A stretch of 64,000 nt of DNA from positions 13,952 through 77,951 of IMG/VR virus record IMGVR_UViG_3300049255_000083. One strand, given 5' to 3'. Below the pieces are notes generated by a model. That model was not told the origin of the DNA, ran no database searches, and saw nothing but the letters and a program-made list of their open reading frames with translations. A program made the position numbers and the translations under genes. This document shows positions 12,769 through 38,204 of the stretch, piece after piece. Positions within the stretch are counted from its first letter, which is position 1. The number at the start of each line of letters is the position of its first letter. Source of the stretch: a virus.

Positions 12769-15700
12769 TTACCGCTTCGTCCTGTTCCGCTCGTGGTTCG
12801 CGATCTGATTCTGAGCGCGGGCGTCGATGATGCGGGCCAGGTCGCCCTTCAACCGCAGCTCGACGACCTGGCCACCTGCGGCTGCGCCGACCGTAGCGCC
12901 GCCCGTTCGTGCAACAGGGGCGAGGCCCGCAACGGGGTTCTGCTGGTAGTACTGCGACGCGACCCGGCTGAAGCTCTTGAGGTCTCCCATCGTGGTGCCT
13001 TGCTCGTCAGCCGTCTGCGCCCACTTCGAGACGGCGTCCGCGTTCGTGAGCATGGCGTAATCGAAAAGGGCGTCGCTCGCGGCGTCGTACACGCCATCCG
13101 TGATGACCTTTTTGACGTTGTTCTCGAGGAACGGCCGGTCGATCTTGATCCCACGGAACCGGAGCGCCCGATAAATGTCATCGAGAGAGCCCCCATGCTC
13201 GTCGAGAGCGTCCTGGGTCTCTTCGTCCCGCTTCTCGGCATGCGTGTCGTGGACGTAGATGGAGTGCGGCGTGAGCATCTTCTGCGCGGCGATAGCCGTC
13301 TCAGGCGGATTGGCGTCTTCAATGGCCTTCTGCATCTTGTCTAGGCCACCCACCATCTGCGCGGCGATAACCGTCTCAGGCGGATTGGCGGCTTCAATGG
13401 CCTTCTGCATCTTGTCTAGGCCACCCACCATCGCCTGGAACGGGAACTGGTTCATCGCCTCCTTCATCGCGTCGCCGATGACGGCGGGGTCGATGCCGGC
13501 TTGAGACATCGCGTCCGTGACGTCCCCGGTGAACGCGGGGTTCTGCTTCAGCTCATCGAGCTTCTTCTGGACCTTGTCGAAATCCTGCTCACTCAGCTTG
13601 CCCTTGATGATCTTGAGGGCGTCATCCGAGCTGATGTTCTTGAGCGTCAGCTTCTTCATTTCGTTGAAATGCGCCTTCGCAAGGGCAAGCTCGGCCGAGA
13701 GCTGTGCCTTCTGATCGGCCGGCGTCTTGGGGTCGTCGAGCTTCTTCTGGAGGTTGGTCATCTTCTCGACCTGCTTGTCGATGGCCTGACCCATCTTGCC
13801 GAACGTGCCCTTTTGCAGCTCCTCGCGCATCTTGCACGTGTCGCCCTGAGCCTTGCCGAAGGCACTGATCAGTTCCGAGTTGCCGGACTTCTGAACCATG
13901 CGGCTCTCTTGGAGCTGTTCACGACGGCTCTTGGTGTTGTCACCCCCGACAACCTTGTCCACCAGGTCCAAGAGGGCGTCATACGTGTCGGACAGGATCT
14001 TGTAGAGCTGGTTCATCACGAAATCGACGAGGATGCCGATCTTGTCCTGCACGCTCGTCTGGAACTTAGAGGTCTCCTTCTGGAAATCGATTTCCGTTTT
14101 GCCGTCTTGGAGCAGGCGCTTCTGGTCGGCCGACATGGCGTCCCACACCTGCTTGGCCTTAAAGTCGCGTAGCTTCTTAGCCGCGGCGCCGGCAGTGCCG
14201 TCGATTTTGAGGGCCTTGAGAGCGTCCGTCTCGGAGTCAGTAAGCTCGATCCCCTTCTCGAGCTTGTGTGCCAGGTCCGCCTGCATCTGCTCGACGGCCA
14301 TGTTGAGTTTCGCGAAGGCGTCTTGCTGCTCGTCCGAGACGCCCATGGCCTGCTCAGCACCAAGACGCTCGACCCCCTTCAGCTCCTCGAATTTCTTTCC
14401 GAACATCTTCATCGACTCGGACTGGAGCTGCTCCATCGTGTCAAACGGGTCGAGGTTTCCGATGGCGCTGGCCAGGTCCACGGGCGTGCCCGCAACGATC
14501 TTGCTCTGCTGGCGGGCGGCTTCGTAGATGGCCTTCTTCGTGTCGTCGGTCATGCCCTCGCCGTTGTCGGCGATCCACTTGGCGAGTTCCTTGTCCGACT
14601 TCTTCAGGACCTGCTTCAGGATCTGCGGGTCCAGCTCCTGTCCGGTCTCCGCCCCGATACGACCAGCGAGCCCTTCGAGCTTCTTATCGAAGCTCTTCAT
14701 GTAATCGGCCGAACCGCGACCTCCCATGAGAACGTGCTTCGTGCGCTCCCCGAGGCCCTGATTCTTGAAAAATCCCGTGACGCCTTGAAGGAACTTCTGA
14801 GCATCGCGCGGGCTCATTGCCTTGCCCAGGCCGATCATCACCTTCGTGATGTCCTCCATGCGAAGGGTGAACAGCGTGAGGTCGCCGGAAAAACCTCGGA
14901 TGATGTTGAAGAACTTGTTGGTCGCGATGCCCGCTTCTTCAGCACCACGGATCATGTACTGGAACGACGTCTCGACATCGACGAGGTTCATACCGAGATC
15001 GGTCATCATCTCGCCCTCGAGCTGACCGATCTCTTGGAGACTCACGCCGAATGCAAGGGAGTACGCGACGGACATCTGCGTGAGCTTGCTCCAATCGGAG
15101 GCGTAGCCCGCGGCACCTTTCGAGTCCTTGCCGACCTGCTTGAACGACTCGTCGAGCTTTTTCAGGCTGACGCCCTCGGCCGTGATGGCGTTGAGGACAG
15201 CCTGGTGGGTCTCCTTGTTGATGCCCCAGTCGAGATTGTCGAGACTCGTCGCCTGGTCACGAATCTTCGTGAGCGTGTCTTCGAGATCCTGCGCGCCTGC
15301 CCCGACCGACTTCAGATTCTTGTGGAGGAACTCGGAGCTGCCAGCGGTCGATAGGATGTTCTTGTTGAACTCCTTTGCGCCCGCTTCGGCGTCGATGAGA
15401 AGCTGAACGATGGACGCGATGGCGCCTGCGGCCATCGAGAGGATCGGCCCGAGCGTTTTGAGCGTGGTGCCGAGTTTGCCGATGATGTCCCCCATCTTGC
15501 CCATCGCCCCGCCGCCACCGCCGGCTGCGGACATCTTGGCCCCGAGCTTCCCGAGACCGCCACCCACCGCCCCGAATCCGCGACCCAGGATCTTGCCCGC
15601 GAGCTTCGCCATCGTGGGCACGTCTTTGGAGAGAACCGCCTTGAGCGGCGCCGAGATCAGGTCACCGATCTCCTCCCCGGCGTCGAGGGCCGCATCGGTG

Positions 15701-26130: not shown

Positions 26131-29100
26131 TCAGATTTGAGCGCGCAGATTGAACGTCAGGACGAGGTACTCCAGGGGGAAGATCGGCTGGTAGTACGCC
26201 TCGAAGAGGAGGACGGTGGGGTCGTCGGGGCTGATGCTCGAGGAGATCCCCGTGAACGCTCCGACGATCTCCGCTTGGACGAGCTGCTTGAACAGCGCCG
26301 TCATCGTGACGTTGACTTCGTTCGTGCGCGTCGAGAGGAACTTCGTGCCCACGAACTGGTCGAGGGCCTGACGCGACTGCTGCTGAACGAAGTCCGCGAT
26401 CTGCGTGACGGTGGGCAGCCGGGTGAGAACCGACTGCATGTTCGTCGTCAGACCCTGACGGATGCGGACGAGGTTGGTCAGGGCCTCGATGAGAGTGACG
26501 CCCGCGACCGCGGTCTGGTTCGCCGTCACCGGGTCGAGCGTCCGCGGGATGCTCGTGAAGCCCTGGAGGCGGCGGCGCGTGTACGGGGTCGCGACGTCGA
26601 CGGACGGGCTCACGACCGCTCCGGCCACCGCGGCGGCGAAGAAGGTGCCGTCCACGACGGATTCGGTGGCGTTCCCGAGTTCGTCCGTCAGCGTGATGAT
26701 GGAGCTGTCGGGGTAGAACGCGACGATGCGGCTCGAAACGAGGCTCTGAGCCACAGACTGTGCGGTCTGCGGCGTCGTGCCCGACGCGAACCCGATGAAG
26801 CCCATCCGCTCCGACTGGTTCTGGATGAGGCTCATCGTCTCGCAGCTCTGCGTGAGGTACGAGTAGACGGCCGTGCTCGTAGCGAGCGGCACGATGATGT
26901 CGGGCTTGATGTTGCCGGGGAGCGGCGTCTGGAGGCCCTGGATGGCGTTGATGAACGACGTGTCGCTCGCTTGGTTCGTGTTCGGAACCTTCAGCACCTG
27001 CTGGATGCCGACGAGGAGCGACCCGTTGAGGATCGCGAGGTACGCCGCGAGGGACACGCGGTTCGACGCCGAGACCGTACCGAACGCAGCCTCGATGGAC
27101 GAGAGCTGGCGGTAGATCGCCGGGGAGAAGTCCTGCTTCATGTACTGGTAGGACAGGAAGTAGAAGTCCCCGATCCCAGGCGCGACGCCCGAGGGGTTGA
27201 ACGTCTGGATGGTCCCGGTGTCCGCGACGTTGACGCCAACGGTGTTCGAGACCGTCGTCTCGAGGCCGGGAATCGCGTACCACGGACGAGCCGGGTTCAC
27301 CTGGAAGGTCTGCGAGACCGTCATGGTGAAGCTGCCGCCGAGGTCGTAGCTCCCCGTCTGGGCCGGGAGAACCGTGAACCGGAGACCCGTCTGGGCCGCC
27401 GTGAACGTGACGCCGGGGATACCCGTGCCGGACGAACCCGCGGCCCCCGCGCTAGAGGTAACCGTGTAGTTCTCCAGCACGTCCTCGCCGTTGTCGCCGT
27501 CCACACCGGGGGTGAGCCCGATGTTCGTGCTCGTGTTGAACGCGCTGCTGTTGAGGAACGAGATGCTCGAGGCGGCAGCACCCGTCGTGAGCGACTCGAA
27601 CGTGATGTAGTTCGCGCCGTTGATGGCGTCCACGTAGGCGACCCCACCGGCCGCGACGAGGCCCTGCGAGAGCAGTTCGTCCACGACCTCCTGGGCCTTG
27701 ACCTGCTGCTGGCTCGCCGCCGTGTTCGTCGTGAACCCGAGGACCGCGTTGGCCGAGCCGTTGCCGATGAGGAGCGCCGACTTGGCGTCGTTGCTCGGGC
27801 TCGTCAGGCGGAGCTTGCCCGCGTTGCCGAGAGTTCCGTCCGACGCGACACCCGAGAGACCGGGCACCGCGTTGATGGCACCCACCACCGCCGAGATCGT
27901 CACCGATCCGCCCGGCAGCGTCACCGTGTACTGGATGCCGTTGACGCTGAGGACGAACTGGTCGTTGAGACCCGTCGTGATGTTGAACGGACCGGCGATC
28001 GAACCGAGGAGCGTCGCCGGCTTGTTCACCGCACCGGGGGTGCCCGCCCCGGACTGGAACATCGTGAAGCCGAGGAACGTGTTGGTTCCCGGCTCGTTGC
28101 TGGTCGTGACCGTCGTGGCCGAGTTGACCTTCACCGCCGAGACCGCATCGAACCCGCCCGGCAACGCACCGGGGGCCGTGTAGCTCTTGACGATGAAGAA
28201 GACGTCGCCCGTGGACCCGCCGATCTGCGCGAACGACGCGAGGTTGTTCGGTGCAGTGCCGCTGAACGCCGCGTTGGCGTCGATGGCTGCGTTGATCGCG
28301 GCCACGATGGCGGTCGGAGTATGCGCCCCCGCCGTGAGGGTCACCTGGACATCGACGCCGTCGATGAGAAGGTCGAGGACGTTGTTCGGCGAAGCGTCCA
28401 CCGTGATGTGACCGCCGCTGTCGGGCGTCAGGTGGCCGCTCACGATGTAGCCGTGAGCCGCAGCGTCGAGGTTCGCCGTGAACGGCGTCCCGTTGACGCC
28501 CATCGACCACGTGGCCGAGTACGGCGAGAAGAAGTTGTACGGCTCGGCGCTGCGGTTCGTGAACGCCGCGTTGGCCGCGGGCTCCTGGCCGAACGTCACC
28601 GTGACTGTCTCGGAAACCGGCGTTCCCGAGCCCGTGTGGAACGCATCGGGGATCGTCTCCGACCCGCGCGGCCACTGGATGGTCTCCGATATGCCCGTCT
28701 TGGTCCCGAAGAGAACCTGGTAGAGGTTCTGACCGGACGCCGAATCCGTGACCGTGTACTGGCCCGTGCCCACCGGGCCGGGGACCTGGCAAGCCAGGAC
28801 ATACGTGTCGTCGCTGACGTGGTTGTAGTAGAACGTCGCGAAGACGGTCCAGTCCGGCGGGATCGGGTTCTGGAGCGTGATGGTGCGGTTCACGCCGTCG
28901 ACGACCGTGACCGTCTGCTTCGGACGGTTGAGGGCGTCGCGGAGGCCGCGGCCCGCGTAGACCTGCACGAGGTCGGGCCGATTCGTCACGAGGTCAAGAC
29001 GGCTGTTCGTGACCGTGTTGAACAGGGTCTGGCCGAGCGTCGTGTCGCGACCGTTGCCCGTGGTCGGGATCTCGGGGAGCACGAACTGCGTCGCCGAGAC

Positions 29101-30420
29101 CTTGGCCGGGATGACCGTCGTGTCCGTGACCGGGTTGCAGGTCGCGAGGTAATACTTCGCGTCCACCAGGAGCCCGGTGATCTGGGAGCTGTTGAACTGC
29201 GTGCCGCCCGTCGAGGTCGAGCCAGCGGCGACCGTGAAGCTCGTACCCCACGAGATGATGCTCGTGTCGGCCGTGGGGTTCGAGACCACGAAGTCGACGT
29301 TCTGGATGTAGTCCGCGCGACCCGGCGAGATGCCGCACCGGAGGACCGTCGTCACGAGGCTGTTCGGCAGGTAGTCGAACGTGTTCTGCCAGGTGTTCGC
29401 GAAGTACTGGATCGTGACCGTCGTGCCAGGCGCCGGAGCGTAGGGCAGCGTCACGATGCCGTTCGAGCCGTCCACGGCGCTCGCGATGACCTGGGCGTTG
29501 TTGACCTTGACGACGACCTTGCTCGGGTCCGTCGTGGTGACGCCGCCGCCCGTCCCGTCCACGATCGGACGCTGGAACACGCGGAACTGCGTGTTGCGGT
29601 TCGTCTGCGTGTTGGCCGTCCACCCGAGAACCCCGTTCGCCGTGCCCGATCCGATCTGGAGGGACGACGGAGCCGTGAGCTGGAGGTGGTTGAGGCCCTG
29701 GCCGTCCGTGTAGACGGACGCCTGGAGGTTCGCGATGGACGCCGCGTTGAGCGCCGTAGCGAGGTTCGACGCGGTGATCGCCGTCCCGGCCGGGAACGTC
29801 ACGGTGCTTGAGACACCGTTGACGAGCACCGTGAACTGGTCGTTCGAGCCCGCCGTGATCGCGAACGGCTCGTACCCTGGCGAGATGAGCGAGGCTTGCG
29901 CCTGCGTCACCTGCGCCGACACGTCATCCGTGAAGCTCGTGTCGCCGCGGTGGAAGTAGTACGTGCAGAGCACGTGATCGGTCGGCTGGGTCGGCACCTG
30001 GAGGGTGACGATGCCCTTCGCACCGTTGACCGCCCCGACCGAAACCGGCACGCCGTTGACCGTGACGGTCACCGTCTGCGGGTTGTTGGTCACGCGGCCG
30101 ATGCCCGTCCCGTCCGTGACCGGGAAGTTGCGGACGACGAACTGCGTCAGGGTGCCGGTTTGGGCGCCGAGCACGAGGTTGTTCGGGTTCGTCGCGTTGA
30201 CGACCCACTGGAGGCTCACGTCCTCGTTGACGATCTGCTGGTCGAGGGTCGCCGACGACCCGCGGACCAGTTCGAGGTCGTCTTGCTCCAGCGTCTCCTG
30301 CCCAACCCCGATGACAAACGGGATGCGAAGCCCGGCGACGATGTTCGCGACGTTGGCTTCGGTCAGCGTCCTCGTGTAGACGCCGGGCGGGACGTAGGTG
30401 ATGAACGGTCCGAGCGACAT
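26131..30420 (-). CDS. Contractile tail sheath protein with many inserted domains, 1429 aa
   Basis: N-terminal YVPPGVYTRTL; C-terminal QIADFVQQQSRQALDQFVG...YYQPIFPLEYLVLTFNL, typical of sheath termini. Confidence 0.9.
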   Translation of the reverse strand: MSLGPFITYVPPGVYTRTLTEANVANIVAGLRIPFVIGVGQETLEQDDLELVRGSSATLDQQIVNEDVSLQWVVNATNPNNLVLGAQTGTLTQFVVRNFPVTDGTGIGRVTNNPQTVTVTVNGVPVSVGAVNGAKGIVTLQVPTQPTDHVLCTYYFHRGDTSFTDDVSAQVTQAQASLISPGYEPFAITAGSNDQFTVLVNGVSSTVTFPAGTAITASNLATALNAASIANLQASVYTDGQGLNHLQLTAPSSLQIGSGTANGVLGWTANTQTNRNTQFRVFQRPIVDGTGGGVTTTDPSKVVVKVNNAQVIASAVDGSNGIVTLPYAPAPGTTVTIQYFANTWQNTFDYLPNSLVTTVLRCGISPGRADYIQNVDFVVSNPTADTSIISWGTSFTVAAGSTSTGGTQFNSSQITGLLVDAKYYLATCNPVTDTTVIPAKVSATQFVLPEIPTTGNGRDTTLGQTLFNTVTNSRLDLVTNRPDLVQVYAGRGLRDALNRPKQTVTVVDGVNRTITLQNPIPPDWTVFATFYYNHVSDDTYVLACQVPGPVGTGQYTVTDSASGQNLYQVLFGTKTGISETIQWPRGSETIPDAFHTGSGTPVSETVTVTFGQEPAANAAFTNRSAEPYNFFSPYSATWSMGVNGTPFTANLDAAAHGYIVSGHLTPDSGGHITVDASPNNVLDLLIDGVDVQVTLTAGAHTPTAIVAAINAAIDANAAFSGTAPNNLASFAQIGGSTGDVFFIVKSYTAPGALPGGFDAVSAVKVNSATTVTTSNEPGTNTFLGFTMFQSGAGTPGAVNKPATLLGSIAGPFNITTGLNDQFVLSVNGIQYTVTLPGGSVTISAVVGAINAVPGLSGVASDGTLGNAGKLRLTSPSNDAKSALLIGNGSANAVLGFTTNTAASQQQVKAQEVVDELLSQGLVAAGGVAYVDAINGANYITFESLTTGAAASSISFLNSSAFNTSTNIGLTPGVDGDNGEDVLENYTVTSSAGAAGSSGTGIPGVTFTAAQTGLRFTVLPAQTGSYDLGGSFTMTVSQTFQVNPARPWYAIPGLETTVSNTVGVNVADTGTIQTFNPSGVAPGIGDFYFLSYQYMKQDFSPAIYRQLSSIEAAFGTVSASNRVSLAAYLAILNGSLLVGIQQVLKVPNTNQASDTSFINAIQGLQTPLPGNIKPDIIVPLATSTAVYSYLTQSCETMSLIQNQSERMGFIGFASGTTPQTAQSVAQSLVSSRIVAFYPDSSIITLTDELGNATESVVDGTFFAAAVAGAVVSPSVDVATPYTRRRLQGFTSIPRTLDPVTANQTAVAGVTLIEALTNLVRIRQGLTTNMQSVLTRLPTVTQIADFVQQQSRQALDQFVGTKFLSTRTNEVNVTMTALFKQLVQAEIVGAFTGISSSISPDDPTVLLFEAYYQPIFPLEYLVLTFNLRAQI

Positions 30421-30542
30421 GGAGTTCCCTCAGAGGTTGAAAGTCGTCTGGGTCTGGATTTGATGAGGGACCGGCAAGGTATCGGATATGGATCGGGGTC
30501 TGAGTCCTCGGGGCCGTACTCCAGCCTCCTACCGAGAGGGGG

Positions 30543-30555
30543 TATCGAAAGACTA
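30543..30555 (-). promoter_or_regulatory. Candidate late-promoter motif TAGTCTTTCGATA upstream of the sheath gene
   Basis: Copy of the recurring motif, about 120 nt before the sheath ATG. Confidence 0.45.
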
Positions 30556-30993
30556 GCGGCCCTCTCGAGTCTCCTTGGCCGCCTGGAGCCGGGAGAGGGC
30601 GGTTTTCGCCAGATTGCGGCGGGCTTCCCGGCCGGCGGGGTTCAGGCCCTCGTACTCCACGTAGTTGTCGCCCGTCCGGCGCATGAGCGCCGGGCTACCA
30701 CCTTGCGCCCGCACCTGCTGCTTCACCTTGTCCCGTTCGGCGTAGTGCGCCCACCTCCGCTCCGCATCCCGGCCCACCGCGTGGTCGGCGGTCGGGTAGT
30801 CTTCCTTGTGAACGCCCGAGTTGCCCTCTTTGGCCGGGTCGCCCTTGAACCCGAAGGCGAAACCCTCGAGGACGCGCGGGGCAAGTTCCCCGCAAGCCGG
30901 ACATTCGAAGCTCGGCCAGTTTTCCTGCTTGAGCGTGCGCTCGAAGCGAAGGTTGCACCCGTCGTGCTGGCATTCGAACGTGTACTTCGGCAT
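30553..30993 (-). CDS. FmdB-family zinc-ribbon protein
   Basis: MPKYTFECQHDGC...FECPACG. Confidence 0.8.
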   Translation of the reverse strand: MPKYTFECQHDGCNLRFERTLKQENWPSFECPACGELAPRVLEGFAFGFKGDPAKEGNSGVHKEDYPTADHAVGRDAERRWAHYAERDKVKQQVRAQGGSPALMRRTGDNYVEYEGLNPAGREARRNLAKTALSRLQAAKETREGR

Positions 30994-31002
30994 GGCCCAT
31001 CC

Positions 31003-32151
31003 TCATTTGATCTTCTCGAAGGCCGAGTTCCGGCCCGCGAGTACAGGTACGGTCGCGAAGAAAAGGTCGGAGGCTGGCTGCTGGTCCGGCCTCGGAATCG
31101 TCTGCTCGATGCGCTGGATCGTGAGCGGCAGCGGGATGTGGATTTCCCAGTCGGCGCGTAGCTGCACCGAGACGGTCGAGTTGTAGTACATGAGGTCGGC
31201 CGTCTCGTCGTAGGTCTCCTCGACTTCTCCGCCCATGGACACGTCGAGGATCTCGATGCCCTCGAATTCGAGGATGGGTTTCTTGACGCCCCAAAGGGAC
31301 ATCACCGTGAAGTCCGTGACCTCCTCCATTTGAACCGGGTCCTGGGAGATCACGTTCAGCTCGAACGTCAGCTCGTACTTCCCGCCGTAGGCGTTGGCCG
31401 CGTCCACGCGGTCGGGGTAGACGACCACGGCCACCTTGTCGCCTTTCTTGGCGCGCTTCCCGAACGCGAGCACGACGCCGGGAAGCGTCGTGAAGTCCGC
31501 TTGGTTCCACTGGAACTTGATGGGCTGCGTCGAAGGCTGCGGGTAGCGATAGTCGGCGTTGAGGACAGTCTCCGGCGCGAAGTTGCGGAGGAGCGAGATG
31601 CTCCCGTTCTCGTAGTTCACCGAGAAGTCGGTCCCCTCGACGAGCTGGACCCGGTGGTTTGCCCAAAGGCGGACCGTGCCCTTGAGGGGCACGTTCTGTA
31701 GCTGGGCTTCACGCTCGACCCCGGTCACGAACTGGAGCAAGGCTTCGTCCGTGACCGTGAGGAGCGGGTCGATGACGTACCATCCGTACTCGCTCGCGTT
31801 CTCGGGCGCGTGGAGGATCTCGATGTAGTAGACGCCGGCCGCCGTGGGAAAGTACCCGTGCTCGGCGACGCACCGAAGATCCTCGCGTACCCACTCCAGC
31901 GGGTACGTAGGCGTTCCGATGTACGCGAGCATGACGTGGCTCTGGACCGTGCCGATGAAGTTGTCCCCGGCGAGCGCTACCTTGTTCGCCGAACTCCCTT
32001 TGACGACGATCCCGTACTGCGGACGCTCCGTGAAGACGAACTTGTTTTCGATGAACGGAACGATCTTGTTGTAGACGGGATGCCGCTCGAAGCTGTCCTT
32101 CAGCTCCAAGATGAGGCGTCGCTTGAGGGAGTTGACGAGGTAGTAGTACAC
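31003..32151 (-). CDS. Tail terminator/sheath-stabiliser-like protein, 382 aa
   Basis: Position between neck and sheath; YELTFELNVISQDPVQMEEVTDF completion-type segment. Confidence 0.6.
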   Translation of the reverse strand: MYYYLVNSLKRRLILELKDSFERHPVYNKIVPFIENKFVFTERPQYGIVVKGSSANKVALAGDNFIGTVQSHVMLAYIGTPTYPLEWVREDLRCVAEHGYFPTAAGVYYIEILHAPENASEYGWYVIDPLLTVTDEALLQFVTGVEREAQLQNVPLKGTVRLWANHRVQLVEGTDFSVNYENGSISLLRNFAPETVLNADYRYPQPSTQPIKFQWNQADFTTLPGVVLAFGKRAKKGDKVAVVVYPDRVDAANAYGGKYELTFELNVISQDPVQMEEVTDFTVMSLWGVKKPILEFEGIEILDVSMGGEVEETYDETADLMYYNSTVSVQLRADWEIHIPLPLTIQRIEQTIPRPDQQPASDLFFATVPVLAGRNSAFEKIK

Positions 32152-32153
32152 GC

Positions 32154-32492
32154 TCAGGTCCCGACTTTTTCGTCAGTCCCGTCCCACACGAACTCGCCGT
32201 CCTCGCCCACGGGGAAGTGCGTGCCGCACGCGCAGCAGAACGTGCCGTTGTAGAACTTGGGGTTGCGAGCGTAGGTCTCCGCGAGGGCCGTGCCCATGGT
32301 CGTCACGGAACCGCACTTGAGGTGGATGTACGACCGTCGCACCGGACGGACGAAACCCTTGGCGCGCTCCTCGGCCGTGAGGACGAGGTAGTCGACCTGC
32401 TGGCCGTCGGGACGGAGTTTCGTGTGCTCCCCGTAGGGGGTGCCATGGATGGTCTCGGCTTCCCCTTGCCCGGTGACGATCTTGCTGCTCAT
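32154..32492 (-). CDS. Small Zn-binding hypothetical protein, 112 aa
   Basis: HLKCGSVTTM...FCCACGTHF; ATGA-coupled to the actin-like gene. Confidence 0.7.
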   Translation of the reverse strand: MSSKIVTGQGEAETIHGTPYGEHTKLRPDGQQVDYLVLTAEERAKGFVRPVRRSYIHLKCGSVTTMGTALAETYARNPKFYNGTFCCACGTHFPVGEDGEFVWDGTDEKVGT

Positions 32493-33508
32493 CCGGCGTG
32501 CTCCTCCATCGCGAGGACGAGGAGACCTTCGGCCACGGCCGTCATCGGGTCCTTGGCCATGCGGATCTCGGAGATCTGGATGGGAAAGCCCTTCTTCTTC
32601 ACCTGCTCGAACTCGTCCTTGAAGACGGCCTCGAACCCGATGGCGCGAGTCGTTCCGCCCGAGATGATGAACGGGATGGGCTCGGGGAGGCTGATGGAGT
32701 TCTGGACCTTGCGGAACTGCACCGCGATGTTGTCGAGGCAGTACCGAATGAGGGCGCGGATGTAGAGCGCGATGGCCTCGGCCTCGCGGTCCCCGCCCGT
32801 GTGCGCGAGGTCCACGCCCTTCTCCTTGGTCGCGCACACGCGGGCGGCCGTGCTCCCGAGGGCCTTGGCCGCATGCTGGTCGATCCAGTCGCCTCCGCGG
32901 GCGAGCGAGAAGTCCATGCCCTTGACGGTCTGGAACGAGAGGGCGACGTTGCACATGCCCGAGCCGAACGACACGGCGAGGCCGGAGAAGTTCGTGTCGG
33001 CGCACTGCGAGTAGATGATCGCCATCGACTCGTTCATCGGGTGCGGCGTGTACCCGTGCTCGGAGATGATCTTGCGGAACACCTCCTGGTGGTAGATGAC
33101 GTCCTGGTCGGGGTCGTCGATGGGGCTCGCCGGAACCGAGTAGAAGCAGTGCTCCTTTTCCACGGTCGGCTCTTGGAGGACGTGGAAGACAAGGAGGCTC
33201 AGGATCTGCTGGGCTTCCAGTTCGCCAGCGGAGATCACACCGCGCGAAAGCGGCCGGCGAACCTCGCGCTTGAAGAGGTTCGCCATGTTGAGGGCGCTAT
33301 CGCCGAGGACGACGAGATTGCCGTCCTTCTCAACGTAGTTCACCTTCGAGAGCCGGAGCGTCTTCTTCGCCTCGAGGTCGAGGTCGATGAAGGCGTCACG
33401 GATTCGCGAGGTCTCGACGCTATCGCCCTTGAGGGTGCTACGCGCCGAAACGATGTTCATGGTTCCGACGTCGAGTCCGACGCCGGGCTTGTACTTGGTG
33501 TCTCCCAT
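32489..33508 (-). CDS. Actin-like ATPase (MreB/FtsA/ParM superfamily), 339 aa
   Basis: Phosphate 1 GLDVGTMN, connect 1 NESMA, phosphate 2 VSFGSGMCNV, adenosine ISGGTT, connect 2 DPMTAVAEG. Confidence 0.88.
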   Translation of the reverse strand: MGDTKYKPGVGLDVGTMNIVSARSTLKGDSVETSRIRDAFIDLDLEAKKTLRLSKVNYVEKDGNLVVLGDSALNMANLFKREVRRPLSRGVISAGELEAQQILSLLVFHVLQEPTVEKEHCFYSVPASPIDDPDQDVIYHQEVFRKIISEHGYTPHPMNESMAIIYSQCADTNFSGLAVSFGSGMCNVALSFQTVKGMDFSLARGGDWIDQHAAKALGSTAARVCATKEKGVDLAHTGGDREAEAIALYIRALIRYCLDNIAVQFRKVQNSISLPEPIPFIISGGTTRAIGFEAVFKDEFEQVKKKGFPIQISEIRMAKDPMTAVAEGLLVLAMEEHAG

Positions 33509-33530
33509 CTTTCATCTCCGTTTTCATCTC

Positions 33531-33548
33531 GAAGGCCGACCGGCCTTC
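33531..33548. promoter_or_regulatory. Perfect GC hairpin GAAGGCCG-AC-CGGCCTTC just upstream of the actin-like gene
   Basis: 8-bp inverted repeat; no U tract. Confidence 0.45.
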
Positions 33549-33558
33549 CCTGAGGGCC

Positions 33559-34362
33559 TCACCCAGACTTCCACCGGGGGTCGTTCGAGCCGACCTTCTG
33601 GCGGTCGTAGGATTCGGCCGTCTTCTGCGAGGCACGCTGCTTGAGGAGGTAGACGTGTTCCTCGTGCTTGTCGGCCACGCCCTGGAGCAGGTTGTCCATG
33701 CCGTGCGAGAGCAGGCCGTGCTGCTCGAGGGCGCCGTAGACCAGCTTGAGGACGATGAGGGTGCGCAAAACCGCTCGGAGCGAGAGAAGCGCATGCTCGT
33801 CGGGGGTCGGGTTCGGCGGGGCGTCGGCGTAGAACGACTGGACGACGGCGGACACGTGCTTGGCGTGAAGCACCGGGTGCGCGAGAATCGTGTTGCCCGC
33901 GCCCACCATGCGCTCGGCCACCTTGTCGATGTCCTCGACCACGCCCTCGTAGAGCCGGTCGAAGAGGAGGTGGTCACCGTAGTAGTTCGGGCCCTGGGAC
34001 TGCCAGTGGTGCGCCTGGTGGATGAGAGACTCGCCGCGGAGGAACGCGAGAAGCACGGAGAGGAGGCTCATCGGCATGTCGCCAAAGTCCGCCTTGATGT
34101 GCTGCATGATGACGAGGAGCGTCGTCGCCGCATCGGCGCCCGTCTTCTCCACAAGAGGGCGAACCTCGTCCTTGAGGGTCTTACGGTTCGCCGCGACCTT
34201 CGTCGCTTCGTCGGGCAGGTACGGCGGCCCGTGACGCAGAAGATCATAGGTCGTCGGGTCGTGCCAGATCGCGTACACGGCGTCGGCGTGCAAACCGGAG
34301 TAGGGGTCTTCGACCGGGACCCCGCCCTCGCGCAGCTTGTCCTCATCGGTCGGCATGCTCAC
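33559..34362 (-). CDS. Dps/ferritin-like protein with N-terminal extension
   Basis: HQAHHWQSQGPNYYGDHLLFDRLYEGVVEDIDKVAER...DKHEEHVYLL matches the Dps ferroxidase pattern. Confidence 0.8.
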   Translation of the reverse strand: MSMPTDEDKLREGGVPVEDPYSGLHADAVYAIWHDPTTYDLLRHGPPYLPDEATKVAANRKTLKDEVRPLVEKTGADAATTLLVIMQHIKADFGDMPMSLLSVLLAFLRGESLIHQAHHWQSQGPNYYGDHLLFDRLYEGVVEDIDKVAERMVGAGNTILAHPVLHAKHVSAVVQSFYADAPPNPTPDEHALLSLRAVLRTLIVLKLVYGALEQHGLLSHGMDNLLQGVADKHEEHVYLLKQRASQKTAESYDRQKVGSNDPRWKSG

Positions 34363-34910
34363 GCCTTCCAGGCCGGATCGTCCGATGCGTGCTTCTTCTT
34401 CGGCTTGGCCTTGGGCGCACTCTGCTTCGGGCCAGGGGCCGCGCCGGGGCTCTTCTCGACCTGCTTGAGTTCCTTCTGGACTTCCGACATCTGGAACTTC
34501 TCGGGACGCTGCGGGACGCTCTTGCCCGAGTAGGGCGAGTGGACGTTCTGCATGCGAGTCGGAAGGAAAAACTCCTTGCCCGAGTCCTCGTCGACGTACT
34601 TCCAGAGGACCGGAGCCGACGCGAGCTTGCTCACGAGCGCCTGGGCCGCCGCCAGGACCGGCATGGCAGGGCCTTCGACCTGGCGGAGTTCCTTCTGCAC
34701 CTCGGGGATCTGGTAGCGCTCGGGGTGCTGTGGGGCCGACTTGCCCGAGAACGGCGAGTGGACGGTCGGAAGACGAACGGTGAGGAAGAATTCCTGGTTC
34801 GAATCGGGGTCCACGTACTTCCAGAGAACCGGCGTTGCCGCCTCCTTGCCCGCGAGCTTCTGCGTCAGGTTCTCGGCTTGGCTCAGCAAAGCGGCTTGGC
34901 GGGGGTGCAT
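34359..34910 (-). CDS. Protein with two tandem Cys-free zinc-ribbon-like domains, 183 aa
   Basis: PVLWKYVD(P/E)DS..EFFL..R...VHSP(F/Y)SGKS.PQ.PE..Q..EVQKEL x2; start reassigned to ATG 34910. Confidence 0.75.
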   Translation of the reverse strand: MHPRQAALLSQAENLTQKLAGKEAATPVLWKYVDPDSNQEFFLTVRLPTVHSPFSGKSAPQHPERYQIPEVQKELRQVEGPAMPVLAAAQALVSKLASAPVLWKYVDEDSGKEFFLPTRMQNVHSPYSGKSVPQRPEKFQMSEVQKELKQVEKSPGAAPGPKQSAPKAKPKKKHASDDPAWKA

Positions 34911-34941
34911 GAAGACGGTCTCCTTCTCAAACCGGCGGGAG

Positions 34942-34953
34942 ATAGAACGACTA
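34942..34953 (-). promoter_or_regulatory. Degenerate candidate late-promoter motif TAGTCGTTCTAT
   Basis: Same position (starting at the upstream stop) as other copies. Confidence 0.3.
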
Positions 34954-35493
34954 CCGAGTCCCACCCTTGCGGAACTTTCGGAGCGCCGCGCCGGCCCCCG
35001 CAACCCCCGACCCTTCCGAGGTTTCGGACTTGACATCCACGTGGGCCTCGACGTCCTTCGGCTTGATCTCCGAGGGGATGTACGTCGGAACCTCGATTTC
35101 GACGACGTCGGACGCCGGCTTGCCGGACGGCGCGGCAGCCGGAGAGCCAGGCGCCACCTGACCGCACGCAAGCATCCCGAGGATGGCATCGAGCTTCCCC
35201 CCGTGCGTATCGAGGGCCGAGCGGAGCATGCGGTTTTGCTCGACGAGGTGACGGTTCTCTTCGCGAAGGCGGTCGACTTCTCCGTCCGGCGCCGGCGGCG
35301 GGGTCGCTTGTCGAGGCACGTCGCGCGGGTCCAACTGGAAAAGCATGCCCTGGGCGATGAGACGCCACAGGTCCTTGCTCTTGGCAGCCTTCAAGGCAGG
35401 GATGGTCACCGTCGCCCGATGGGGGACGTCCATGGCGATGTCCTCGATGAGGACGGTCTGCATCTTGAGACCGAGGACTCGAACGTCACTCAT
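34951..35493 (-). CDS. Coiled-coil hypothetical protein, 180 aa
   Basis: EVDRLREENRHLVEQNRML heptads. Confidence 0.7.
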   Translation of the reverse strand: MSDVRVLGLKMQTVLIEDIAMDVPHRATVTIPALKAAKSKDLWRLIAQGMLFQLDPRDVPRQATPPPAPDGEVDRLREENRHLVEQNRMLRSALDTHGGKLDAILGMLACGQVAPGSPAAAPSGKPASDVVEIEVPTYIPSEIKPKDVEAHVDVKSETSEGSGVAGAGAALRKFRKGGTR

Positions 35494-35990
35494 CGCCGAG
35501 AAATGGCCCTCCTAGCCTGGTTCACGTACTCCCTGTAGAGCTTGTCCCGCATGAACGCCCGCGCTTCCTGGCGGGCCTTCTCGAGGAAGGTGCTCGGGGT
35601 CCGGCCGGGGTGCATCCACTTGCCGTCCGCCATCGACTTCGGCGTGGCCGAGCGGAAGATGAGTTCCCCCGTCTCCGTGATGATGGGGATGGGCCGCTTG
35701 GCCTTGGTGAGCCACGTCATCTGCCCGGCGCGCTGCCCTCCGACGATGTACCGGAACGCCGGGTGCTTCGCGATGATGAGGAGGCTCGACGGCTGAACTT
35801 TGATCTCGATGGTCCTCGCGAGGGCCTTCTTCGCACGCTCCGAGAAAGTTTCTTGTGTGAGCTTGGCCTTGATCCGCTTGAGCATTTCGTTGCGCAGGCG
35901 GCGCAATGCGGAGGTCGGATCGATGTTCTTGAAGTCGCCCGTGAGCGGCCTGAGGTACGTCGTCTTGACCTTGAAGATCGGGCCGGGCAT
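35490..35990 (-). CDS. Basic neck/tail-completion protein (HK97 gp10-like), 166 aa
   Basis: Start reassigned to ATG 35990; basic, ends HPGRTPSTFLEKARQE; follows the head-closure gene. Confidence 0.55.
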   Translation of the reverse strand: MPGPIFKVKTTYLRPLTGDFKNIDPTSALRRLRNEMLKRIKAKLTQETFSERAKKALARTIEIKVQPSSLLIIAKHPAFRYIVGGQRAGQMTWLTKAKRPIPIITETGELIFRSATPKSMADGKWMHPGRTPSTFLEKARQEARAFMRDKLYREYVNQARRAISRR

Positions 35991-35991
35991 C

Positions 35992-37386
35992 TCAGTACTC
36001 GATGTTCTCCCACACGGGGGTACGGCCTCGGAGCTGCTCCTCGACGGGGACGTCTGGCTTGTTGGTGATCGCCGTCGAGGCTTCCTGCTCGGGGCCTGAC
36101 GGCTTGAACTCGACGTAGGTGTACTTGCGCGGCTGGTCCATCGGCACGCGGTAGCGGATGTCCTTCTCGTCGATGTGCCCGATGGTGAAGTGTTGCTGGA
36201 GCACCATGCCGCGGTTCGACGGCAGCCGGACCGCCCCAATCGAGTACCTGTCGCCGTTGAGCTTCACGAGGAAGTCCCGGTGGCGAAGTAGCGGCGAGGG
36301 ACCCGTCCACACCTCATACGAGTGTTCGACGGTCCGCCCGATGTCCGACTGCCGCACGCGCCGGTCGCCGTCGTCGGGCGCGATGATGGCGTCGAACGGA
36401 CCGTCGTAGCCGCCGACGAAACCGACGCCGTAGCATAGGGGGTCATCGTTGATGGGCTGCCCGTGGTAATCGTCGGGGATGCACGGGCAAGGGATGCCGT
36501 TCGTCTTCTGGAGAAAGAACTTCACACGCTCGCCTCCCTGCTCGAGGATGAAGCGGTTGCGACGAACGGCCTCCCGCCAGATGTAGTCGAGCTTCTCGAT
36601 CTCGTAGTTCGAGACCTGCGTGGCCTCTTCGAGCGGGGTCTCGATGAGGTCCTGCGGCTGCACGGTCGAGAGCGGCACGTTGATGGGGATGCCGACCGCC
36701 GTGATCCGGTAGAAGACACGCACCATGAGGTCCGTGCGGAGGAGTTTCCTCAGCCGGACATACGAGCACGTGACCCTGCTCCCCGGTTTGGGGATGACGA
36801 ACTGCTGGTAGGTCTGCGTACCCGGCTCGTAGGTCGCCTGATTGACCCCGTGCCACGACGGGTCGTAGGGGTAGCCGGCGTCGATCTCGACTTCGCCAGT
36901 GCGCCCGTAGACGCGGAGTACCCGAGCTTCCTGCCCATCGACGAACACACGCACGTCCTCGGGCTCGTGGGCAAACACGCCCTGCGAGCCCGACTTGATG
37001 ATGGGGTTGTAGAGCGTCTTGAAGACGTACCGAGGGGCGTCGGAGCCGGACGCGGAGCACTCCCCGAAGAGGACGAAGTTGTCGCTCACGTCCTCTTCGA
37101 CGATGCGCTCCGTGTCCGTCCTGTCCCGCCAGAAAGTCGAGCCCACCGGAACGCTCGTGACGCGCTCGTAGGGACCAAACTCCGAGTCGAAGCTCCGGTA
37201 GACGTTCACCCCACAGAGCACGAACCGGCTGTTGAGCGAGAGCGTCGCCGGGTCATCCCACTGGATGTCGTAGACGCCTGGATGAAACCCGCTCGTGAGG
37301 AAGACGTTGAGCGGTGGAGCCGGCCAAGGGGTCTTGGTCAGCTCCAGCTCGGTCGGGCGGCGGTCCCTGTTGCTCGCGTAGGGCAT
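35992..37386 (-). CDS. Neck/head-closure protein (gp14-like) with N-terminal FN3-like domain, 464 aa
   Basis: EQGGERVKFF...CPC...CYGVGFVGGY...HRDFLVKLNGDRYSI. Confidence 0.65.
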   Translation of the reverse strand: MPYASNRDRRPTELELTKTPWPAPPLNVFLTSGFHPGVYDIQWDDPATLSLNSRFVLCGVNVYRSFDSEFGPYERVTSVPVGSTFWRDRTDTERIVEEDVSDNFVLFGECSASGSDAPRYVFKTLYNPIIKSGSQGVFAHEPEDVRVFVDGQEARVLRVYGRTGEVEIDAGYPYDPSWHGVNQATYEPGTQTYQQFVIPKPGSRVTCSYVRLRKLLRTDLMVRVFYRITAVGIPINVPLSTVQPQDLIETPLEEATQVSNYEIEKLDYIWREAVRRNRFILEQGGERVKFFLQKTNGIPCPCIPDDYHGQPINDDPLCYGVGFVGGYDGPFDAIIAPDDGDRRVRQSDIGRTVEHSYEVWTGPSPLLRHRDFLVKLNGDRYSIGAVRLPSNRGMVLQQHFTIGHIDEKDIRYRVPMDQPRKYTYVEFKPSGPEQEASTAITNKPDVPVEEQLRGRTPVWENIEY

Positions 37387-37421
37387 CGAAACTCCCTACA
37401 ACAGCGACCCGAAAAGAAGAG

Positions 37422-37751
37422 TCACGCCTGGGGTGGCGCGGCCTCTGGCGCCGGGGCCTCGGGCGCCTGGCCGTTCGGGACGTTGAGCAAGCTGATCTTG
37501 CCGGTCTGCGGGTCCACCTCGACCGGGACGTTCGGCCCGAGCCCGCGGCTCGAGAGAACGGTCGCGAAGAGCTTGGACCGCTCGTCGTCAAGTCTGCGTA
37601 CTTCCACGAGAACTTTGACCTTCTCCTGCTCGAGGTCGACCATCATTTCCCCGAGCTGGAGGCGGCGGGTCTGGATCTCCCCCATGCGCTTGAGCGTCTG
37701 GGCGTCCACCGGGTCGTTGATCGTGAGCTTCTTCTCGGATTCGGTTCCCAT
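37422..37751 (-). CDS. Small coiled-coil protein, 109 aa
   Basis: RBS GGGAGATG; typical codon usage. Confidence 0.65.
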   Translation of the reverse strand: MGTESEKKLTINDPVDAQTLKRMGEIQTRRLQLGEMMVDLEQEKVKVLVEVRRLDDERSKLFATVLSSRGLGPNVPVEVDPQTGKISLLNVPNGQAPEAPAPEAAPPQA

Positions 37752-37829
37752 TTTTCATCTCCCGCGTTGATCGGCGGTGTGGTGGGCGCTTAGCACCCGT
37801 AGGGCTACGTCTATGAAAGGAATTTTCCC

Positions 37830-38204
37830 ATGCGTTCGACCGTGGAATTCGATTTGGCCGCCTTGCGGATCGCCGTCGACAATGCGACCGAGGGCCGGTA
37901 CTCGGCCCTCCGGCACGAGTGCGGCGCCAGCGGGTGGCAGCCTCGCATGTGGGCACAGACACCGGCGGAAGGGGCTCCCCGAGGGACAACGCGCGTTTTC
38001 TTCATCGGCCTCGACTCTCTCGGCCGAACGCAGTACTTCGATACCGCGCTGATCCCCGACAAGTCCATCGGCAAGAAGATCCAGATCTCCGAGACGGTTC
38101 AGGAAGCGGCTCGAACCGCGCACCGGCTCGAAGCCGGGCTCTCGCGACTCGACGCGGGGCTCGACCACGAGCCTCCGGCGCCCGAGGTTAGAGCGCTGAA
38201 CTAG
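37830..38204 (+). CDS. Hypothetical protein on the plus strand, 124 aa
   Basis: GAAAGGA RBS; fills the gap between minus-strand genes and ends 1 nt from a convergent stop. Confidence 0.65.
   Translation: MRSTVEFDLAALRIAVDNATEGRYSALRHECGASGWQPRMWAQTPAEGAPRGTTRVFFIGLDSLGRTQYFDTALIPDKSIGKKIQISETVQEAARTAHRLEAGLSRLDAGLDHEPPAPEVRALN

Follow-up and report, generated by a model that had tools for sequence, protein, structure and literature searches.

A volactin-family actin gene in the neck-tail block of a huge-phage clade, with a candidate role in virion assembly

Introduction

The phage cytoskeletons known so far are the tubulin PhuZ of nucleus-forming jumbo phages and one ParM-like prophage actin, AlpC. 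Among cellular actins, the volactin of Haloferax volcanii forms dynamic, ParM-like filaments in vivo and acts in cell-shape transitions (PMC10869688). The analysis described here concerns a volactin-family actin gene on a stretch of viral DNA of 64,000 nucleotides (nt), called the window throughout (positions 13,952 to 77,951 of IMG/VR virus record IMGVR_UViG_3300049255_000083). Positions 32154-33548 of the window hold two minus-strand genes and a leader, and the first of these genes encodes an actin-fold ATPase of 339 amino acids (aa), P0001. PhuZ and AlpC are both described in the literature; no paper was found on a volactin-type actin in huge phages, and neither the 2020 huge-phage survey nor the 2026 jumbo-phage review mentions a phage actin. 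The new element is a volactin-family actin that is fixed in the morphogenesis module of a widespread clade of uncultured phages. Taken as a whole, the best explanation is that volactin filaments, late in infection and together with a coiled-coil adaptor, would organize virion assembly, a reading to which a probability of about 0.6 is assigned.

Sequence and predicted fold of the actin

The gene is a genuine, intact volactin-family actin, and not an MreB, FtsA, or ParM. P0001 matches the Pfam Volactin family (PF25216) at 253.4 bits (E 4.8e-75; cut-off 35) over model positions 3-321 of 321, and a six-frame search of the record recovers Volactin at 253.1 bits. No match to P0001 was obtained at E <= 0.1 from the Pfam families MreB (including MreB_Mbl, PF06723), FtsA, and HSP70, and PHROGs holds no family matching either the actin or the 112-aa open reading frame (ORF) that follows it. 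The NCBIfam MamK model scores 18.1 bits, far below its cut-off of 400. When P0001 was searched as a single sequence against solved chains, nothing was returned at E <= 1; the profile of a 71-sequence alignment matches MamK (1.3e-15), BeeR (1.5e-10), MreB (~2e-7), and FtsA (~9e-7).

A preliminary description of this DNA, made from its letters, had listed five actin-fold motifs with the catalytic glutamate in a NESMA sequence. All five are present, and all are conserved in the 71-sequence alignment: phosphate-1 (D13-x-G15-T16), connect-1 (N-E160-S-M-A), phosphate-2 (S180-F-G182-S-G184), the adenosine motif (G284-G285-T286), and connect-2 (G328). Residues D13, G15, T16, E160, G182, G184, G284, G285, T286, and G328 are invariant or nearly so. 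Phosphate-2 opens with a serine and not with the canonical aspartate, which is a family-wide trait (S180 is at least 90% conserved). Both termini of P0001 are short and polar by inspection.

The AlphaFold2 (AF2) model, built from the same alignment, has a predicted local distance difference test score (pLDDT) of 95.3 and a predicted template-modeling score (pTM) of 0.92. According to this model, P0001 is a complete four-subdomain actin core; the protein stops at residue 339 with that core and has no Hsp70 substrate-binding domain. The top Foldseek ranks are held by the MamK filament (TM 0.74-0.76), MreB/Mbl, and the BeeR filament. An exhaustive VIA search gave BeeR (Z 27.0), MreB (25.5), crenactin (25.0), the BiP nucleotide-binding domain (24.1), FtsA (23.3), actin (22.9), ParM (22.3), and MamK (20.8). 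The best non-viral match in the ESM Atlas is an archaeal Volactin cluster model (TM 0.91, root-mean-square deviation 1.6 over 324 residues). Among the viral structures of BFVD nothing is close: the best match is phage G gp506 (TM 0.55), and the matches are mostly Hsp70 homologues, all weak (TM 0.5-0.6). The Volactin match and a predicted fold with intact nucleotide-binding motifs thus bear out the assignment as a true actin-fold ATPase. A predicted homodimer of two actin copies scored 0.00, which speaks neither for nor against self-association.

Conservation of the actin among related phages

The source is a 79-kb record from a moss metagenome (CheckV completeness 17%) and is a fragment of a huge phage; the window DNA was found again in moss metagenomes. 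The actin has more than 2000 homologues. The best 120 clusters are 73-92% identical, many of them on contigs of 200-570 kb, and a 235-kb contig from an NCBI assembly shows an identical gene order. Completeness ratings of 43-73% for related IMG/VR records of 203-350 kb correspond to full genomes of roughly 0.45-0.5 Mb. The actin belongs to the core genome of a large huge-phage clade with genomes of roughly 0.35-0.57 Mb. The window contains no tRNA genes that could hint at a host. On a related huge-phage contig, a 127-aa protein (L018:342-725) matches Pfam Gp80 (PF23140), a family presumably named after a subunit of the virion RNA polymerase of phiKZ; the match would then hint at remote kinship with phiKZ-like phages.

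Two samples of relatives show that the position of the gene is fixed. In the first, the actin served as query for eight viral loci, and the gene order is the same in all of them. The second, independent sample comprised 80 viral loci fetched with the downstream tail-terminator protein as query, 69 of which offer at least 1150 nt of upstream sequence; the actin lies upstream of the terminator in all 69. The gap between the two genes is shorter than 60 nt in 46 of these loci, and the other 23 carry inserts of 130-1530 nt. Compared with their counterparts in the window, the actins reach a median of 70% identity, the sheath N-termini 65%, and the terminators 59%, followed by the zinc-ribbon (51%), Dps-like (39%), and coiled-coil (35%) proteins. 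In 62 of the 69 loci the actin is more conserved than the terminator. No other protein of the block is so well conserved, and the actin is under strong purifying selection.

The actin-terminator pair is also kept where the actin itself has diverged further, at 50% identity (L022) and at 44% (L025). The latter is an AT-rich phage whose neighboring genes are otherwise different, and a terminator homologue still follows its actin. On a 330-kb contig, an actin 41% identical to P0001 is followed by ORFs of ~416 and ~145 aa, a similar layout as far as ORF sizes show. L025 also carries a NUMOD3-type homing endonuclease gene (L025:6660-7769) on the opposite strand, between the gene with the coiled-coil-like tail and the actin gene, and an intein-bearing helicase downstream.

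Many actin representatives are ~470-800 aa long and match the query in two stretches. All nine long representatives that were scanned (P0123, P0124, P0126, P0128, P0133, P0137, P0151, P0160, and P0209) combine Volactin with Intein_splicing/Hint and with LAGLIDADG or HNH domains. Three of them, read in detail, have three different insertion points (G182/S183, N187/V188, and R204/G205 in window numbering), so that at least three sites are used in the family, and each of the three flanks phosphate-2 and the RGGDW motif. Inteins favor highly conserved, indispensable sites, and their presence here therefore fits the strong constraint on the actin. No paper describing inteins in actin homologues was found.

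Phylogeny and cellular relatives

In a maximum-likelihood tree of 116 rows, with the named cellular genomes labeled, phage actins at least 60% identical form one clade with short branches and a Shimodaira-Hasegawa-like approximate likelihood-ratio (SH-aLRT) support of 98. This clade is nested in a larger one (97) with further phage-context sequences, and the named cellular genomes are placed elsewhere in the tree. The nearest cellular relatives found belong to Planctomycetota and Omnitrophota; they are 33-41% identical and have no phage neighbors. Volactin is above its cut-off in 65 of 151 sampled Planctomycetota genomes. The GC content at third codon positions (GC3) of the actin is 0.91, matching that of the neighboring phage genes. 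A decaying capture would be expected to nest within host FtsA or MreB. The phage actins form instead a monophyletic clade apart from the cellular sequences, and with MreB and FtsA absent from the family matches as well, a recent or decaying host capture is excluded.

Several cellular or otherwise unusual architectures occur in the family. P0245 (35% identity; an ESM Atlas cluster of 69 members) represents a bacterial branch in which an N-terminal HU domain (Bac_DNA_binding) is fused to volactin; the one context that was read is chromosomal, beside PilZ, SPOR-domain, and Amidase_2 genes. The fusion hints at a link to DNA or to cell division. Omnitrophota (L007, L008) have adjacent pairs of volactin paralogues, with five copies in one genome. 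One family protein of 729 aa, listed with P0146, P0149, and P0127, is a tandem double volactin.

Gene neighborhood

All genes of the block lie on the minus strand (Table 1). In order of transcription they encode the 464-aa, 166-aa, 180-aa coiled-coil, 183-aa, Dps-like, actin, 112-aa, 382-aa, 146-aa, and 1429-aa proteins and a UvrD-type helicase.

TABLE 1. Features of the actin locus in window coordinates, listed in order of transcription.
Feature	Coordinates	Strand	Basis
Conserved protein of 464 aa, virus-only, first in the block; presumed neck protein	35992..37386	-	Conservation, ESM Atlas
166-aa conserved neck-region protein	35490..35990	-	Conserved in relatives
180-aa protein with N-terminal beta-rich domain, short coiled coil, and conserved C-terminal tail	34951..35493	-	Candidate actin adaptor
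183-aa protein with internal duplication and basic tail ending DDPAWKA	34359..34910	-	Repeat analysis
267-aa Dps/ferritin-like protein, next gene upstream of the actin	33559..34362	-	Profile matches
GC-rich hairpin, 7-bp stem and 4-nt GGUC loop, just after the Dps-like stop codon	33531..33548	-	Folding
Leader and ribosome-binding region with 12-nt tandem duplication	33509..33530	-	Repeat count, shared element
Volactin-family actin-fold ATPase, 339 aa (P0001)	32489..33508	-	Pfam PF25216, AF2 model
112-aa Cys/His accessory ORF (P0002), ATGA overlap with the actin stop	32154..32492	-	Coding-type GC3
Tail-terminator protein, 382 aa, with inserted beta domain (predicted)	31003..32151	-	AF2 and VIA
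146-aa zinc-ribbon protein in the terminator-sheath gap	30553..30993	-	Pfam Zn_ribbon_8, E 4.5e-5, below curated cut-off
1429-aa tail sheath with large insertions	26131..30420	-	Pfam Phage_sheath_1C

The preliminary description had placed the actin inside a neck-tail block, and this placement is supported because the 382-aa protein has a terminator fold and the 1429-aa protein a sheath match at its C-terminus. According to structure prediction (AF2 pLDDT 78), the 382-aa neighbor is a tail terminator into which a beta domain has been inserted. Dozens of terminator and collar chains head its VIA list, including the phage 812 neck (Z 15.0), T5 p142 (12.7), lambda gpU (10.9), and T4 gp15 (9.3); Z scores of 9-13 are also reached by Mu, pyocin, and diffocin collar proteins, and Foldseek agrees. 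The Phage_sheath_1C match of the 1429-aa protein is weak (E 0.0066), and the protein is 56-68% identical in relatives. Homologues of the zinc-ribbon protein occur in all 80 related loci, and the ESM Atlas clusters nearest to the 464-aa protein (score 0.98) are 97-100% viral. The actin is co-oriented and tightly packed with these late neck and tail genes, and would therefore be co-transcribed with them. A scan of positions 30000-38000 for sigma-70-type promoters found none.

The Dps-like protein matches Pfam Ferritin (E 3.8e-5), PHROG 3636 (E 9e-11), and, below cut-off, NCBIfam Dps (E 5.6e-7). Homologues of the 183-aa protein start with MHPRQA in all close relatives and vary in length (104-407 aa). 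Within its gene, an internal duplication of 188 nt (34456-34862; 72% identity) gives the protein two PVLWKYVD...SGKS...EVQKEL modules. The C-termini of the Dps-like (SNDPRWKSG; 33559-33590) and 183-aa (SDDPAWKA; 34359-34390) proteins share a D-P-x-W-K motif, and the Dps-like homologues of several relatives also end in x-W-K-x; these shared ends may be a second docking or targeting peptide.

Upstream of the actin, the duplicated sequence that had been noted in the preliminary description proves to be a duplicated ribosome-binding region. The element GAGATGAAA stands at 33510-33518 and again at 33522-33530, and the proximal copy supplies a GGAG Shine-Dalgarno sequence. The window holds three copies, with 0.36 expected by chance, and the third directly precedes the start of gene 37422-37751. 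The element therefore reads as a Shine-Dalgarno sequence plus spacer (GGAGATGAAA-R-ATG), tandemly duplicated in the actin leader. In its longer form, GGAGATGAAA-R-ATGGGA, it precedes both the actin (33508-33522) and gene 37422-37751 (37751-37765), and both proteins start with MG. The "strong" hairpin of the same description exists as a 7-bp stem, but the folding of its region is no stronger than that of shuffled sequence (z -0.54; 61 of 200 shuffles are as stable). It has no U-tract and was not called by the terminator scan, and relatives have different hairpins or none at this position; a role as regulator or terminator was accordingly rejected.

The 112-aa ORF had been described as coupled to the actin through ATGA and as a possible partner. 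The overlap is real and the ORF looks coding (GC3 0.88). Zinc binding is plausible from its residues His57, Cys60, Cys86, Cys87, Cys89, and His92, and a language-model feature search of the ESM Atlas places it nearest to a widespread family of small viral proteins (score 0.97). The suggested partnership does not hold up: none of the 69 related loci has a homologue at this site, where others carry unrelated small ORFs, and the ORF is therefore a variable accessory insert and not a conserved partner. The actin-terminator junction (32152-32488; L010, L012, L015, and 23 of 69 further loci) is an insertion hotspot; depending on the phage, it contains small ORFs without relation to one another or additional DNA of up to 1.5 kb.

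The coiled-coil protein as a candidate adaptor

The coiled-coil gene that had been pointed out near the actin (34951) is real and travels with it: among the 60 related loci with room upstream, 50 have a homologue of the 180-aa protein and 59 a Dps-like gene. The 180-aa protein is only ~35% identical overall, yet its last ~15 residues keep a nearly invariant A-x3-L-R-x-[LFMV]-R-K (LRxLRK), preceded by an acidic or Ser-rich stretch. Short terminal peptides serve for docking in other filament systems, as when ParR engages ParM or the tail of FtsZ engages FtsA. A terminal peptide that hardly varies while the rest of its protein evolves fast usually marks a docking motif, and this makes the 180-aa protein an adaptor candidate, the best one in the block as judged from sequence. 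In P0146 and P0149 (669 and 908 aa), long coiled-coil N-terminal extensions are fused to volactin; such natural fusions link the two kinds of protein.

Proposed role and alternatives

In the proposed mechanism, the actin would bind ATP and polymerize into dynamic filaments in the infected cell. The filaments would work with the 180-aa coiled-coil protein, whose basic C-terminal tail would dock on the actin, and would place or move large cargo (procapsids, tails, or DNA) during virion assembly. The system would thus do with actin what the PhuZ spindle does with tubulin. Polymerization is suggested by analogy within the family. Gene linkage and the tail motif point to a putative adaptor contact and to a probable role in assembly or trafficking, and late timing and the kind of cargo are likewise matters of inference. 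In its broadest form, the proposal is of a clade-wide late actin cytoskeleton, engaged by a phage-only coiled-coil adaptor through its LRxLRK tail, that carries or aligns capsids, tails, or Dps-like cargo; this is offered tentatively, with the odds somewhat against it. If it is true, a prokaryotic virus would for the first time be seen to assemble its virions with actin-based machinery, and the clade would present an actin under eukaryote-like constraint (70-90% identity across the clade). If the protein polymerizes, it would provide the first actin-based organization of phage assembly, a tractable volactin homologue that comes with a candidate adaptor peptide (volactins have no known partner so far), and a system in which to ask why certain actins come under such strong constraint. 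A search of four related records (203-350 kb) for a tubulin domain (PF00091) found none.

Several observations weigh against filaments that organize assembly. The four records searched for tubulin are all incomplete (43-73%). The Hsp70 nucleotide-binding domain (Z 24.1) is nearly level with MreB in the VIA search, so that the fold alone is no proof of filaments; what tells filament formers apart from domains of the Hsp70 type is the family assignment, since the volactin of H. volcanii is known to make filaments. The S-F-G-S-G form of phosphate-2 may alter ATP hydrolysis. No cargo- or membrane-binding element was identified, the membrane point resting on inspection of the termini, and a position among structural genes is also compatible with an assembly chaperone or a virion component. 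No RNA data set was listed as containing the full stretch. One metatranscriptome run, which contained 5% of the words sampled, matched the window in just five pieces of 36-87 nt; four of the five are less than 90% identical, and they were not counted as evidence of transcription. The 224-aa protein of L025 shares just the C-terminal 27 columns with the coiled-coil family (hhalign E 0.0026, probability 12%), and this weak, tail-only alignment was set aside as a lead and not accepted as homology.

Positioning or segregation of DNA in the ParM/AlpC manner fares best among the alternatives, although it is unlikely. In this case a DNA-binding adaptor would let the actin move phage genomes under replication, or a carrier state resembling a plasmid, or hold them in place. 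AlpC of prophage CGP3, the only characterized phage actin, works in this way with AlpA (PMC4446434, PMC5539076), volactin dynamics are ParM-like, and a bacterial branch of the family is fused to the HU domain, although the context of that fusion is cellular and not phage. The adjacent, conserved Dps-like gene also belongs here, as Dps proteins bind DNA. On the other hand, no ParR- or AlpA-like DNA-binding domain was detected in the neighbors (Pfam, PHROGs, and NCBIfam), and positions 32100-35600 hold no iterated centromere-like repeats, just one intragenic duplication and short chance pairs. The gene, moreover, lies in a structural module and not in a replication or partition module.

Next comes remodeling of the host, to which a low probability is given. 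The phage would use its actin to change the shape or size of the cell or to stop it dividing, alone or by interfering with the host cytoskeleton, and so make room for very large virions. Phages of ~0.45 Mb presumably must build virions that are large on the scale of soil bacteria, volactin has a part in cell-shape transitions, and its frequency in Planctomycetota means that a host could own a related filament. At 33-41% identity, however, the nearest cellular relatives are too distant for copolymerization to be likely. Host-manipulating genes are usually early and variable, whereas this actin is fixed in a late structural block, and no membrane-targeting helix is apparent by sequence inspection at either terminus.

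Less probable again is a non-filamentous ATPase that serves as a neck-tail assembly factor or virion component, like the Hsp70 homologue in the closterovirus virion tail. The fixed position immediately before the tail terminator would suit such a protein, and so would the Z score of the Hsp70 nucleotide-binding domain and the prevalence of Hsp70 homologues among the weak BFVD matches. Against this, P0001 is a bare actin core that lacks a substrate-binding domain, a member of its family demonstrably polymerizes, and its sequence profiles match MamK, BeeR, MreB, and FtsA, not Hsp70.

Recent or decaying capture of a host cytoskeletal gene without a phage-specific function, for which the occurrence of the family on bacterial chromosomes might be cited, is very improbable and already contradicted by the data, as the reading frame is intact and the catalytic residues invariant, the actin is present in all 69 relatives and the best conserved of its block, its GC3 is that of the neighboring phage genes, and the phage clade is monophyletic with short branches.

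Comparison with known systems

Late volactin filaments with a coiled-coil adaptor would have their closest described relative in VolA (HVO_2015) of H. volcanii. VolA belongs to the same Pfam family as the phage actin, is of similar length, and has the same four-subdomain fold; the unusual phosphate-2 (S/x-F-G-x-G) and the RGGDWID motif are shared by the volactin family and the phage actin. VolA is encoded by a cell, whereas the phage actin is encoded in a run of virion neck and tail genes, is far more conserved within its clade, and carries inteins in some members. Identity is ~36% to one markedly acidic, possibly haloarchaeal, representative, VolA itself not being the sequence aligned. The role of VolA in cell shape is not expected to carry over to the phage actin. 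MamK, MreB, and BeeR provide the best solved structural matches, but the phage actin has no single-sequence match to them at E <= 1 and no context of magnetosome or cell-wall synthesis.

The AlpC/AlpA pair of the Corynebacterium glutamicum prophage CGP3 resembles the arrangement proposed here in that a phage-encoded, actin-like ATPase acts with an adaptor. AlpC, however, is a divergent ParM-like protein whose adaptor binds DNA and which, together with alpS sites, serves to transport and replicate DNA, whereas the phage volactin lies in a structural module, and neither a DNA-binding adaptor nor repeat sites were found nearby. PhuZ of the Chimalliviridae is, like the phage actin, a phage-encoded cytoskeletal NTPase of very large phages, and the positioning of cargo is what is proposed for the actin here. 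The two differ in fold and in lineage, PhuZ having the tubulin/FtsZ fold and belonging to another group of phages, and the phage actin having the actin fold. PhuZ is dispensable and absent from many relatives; the phage actin, in contrast, is found in every one of the 69 related loci that have room for it.

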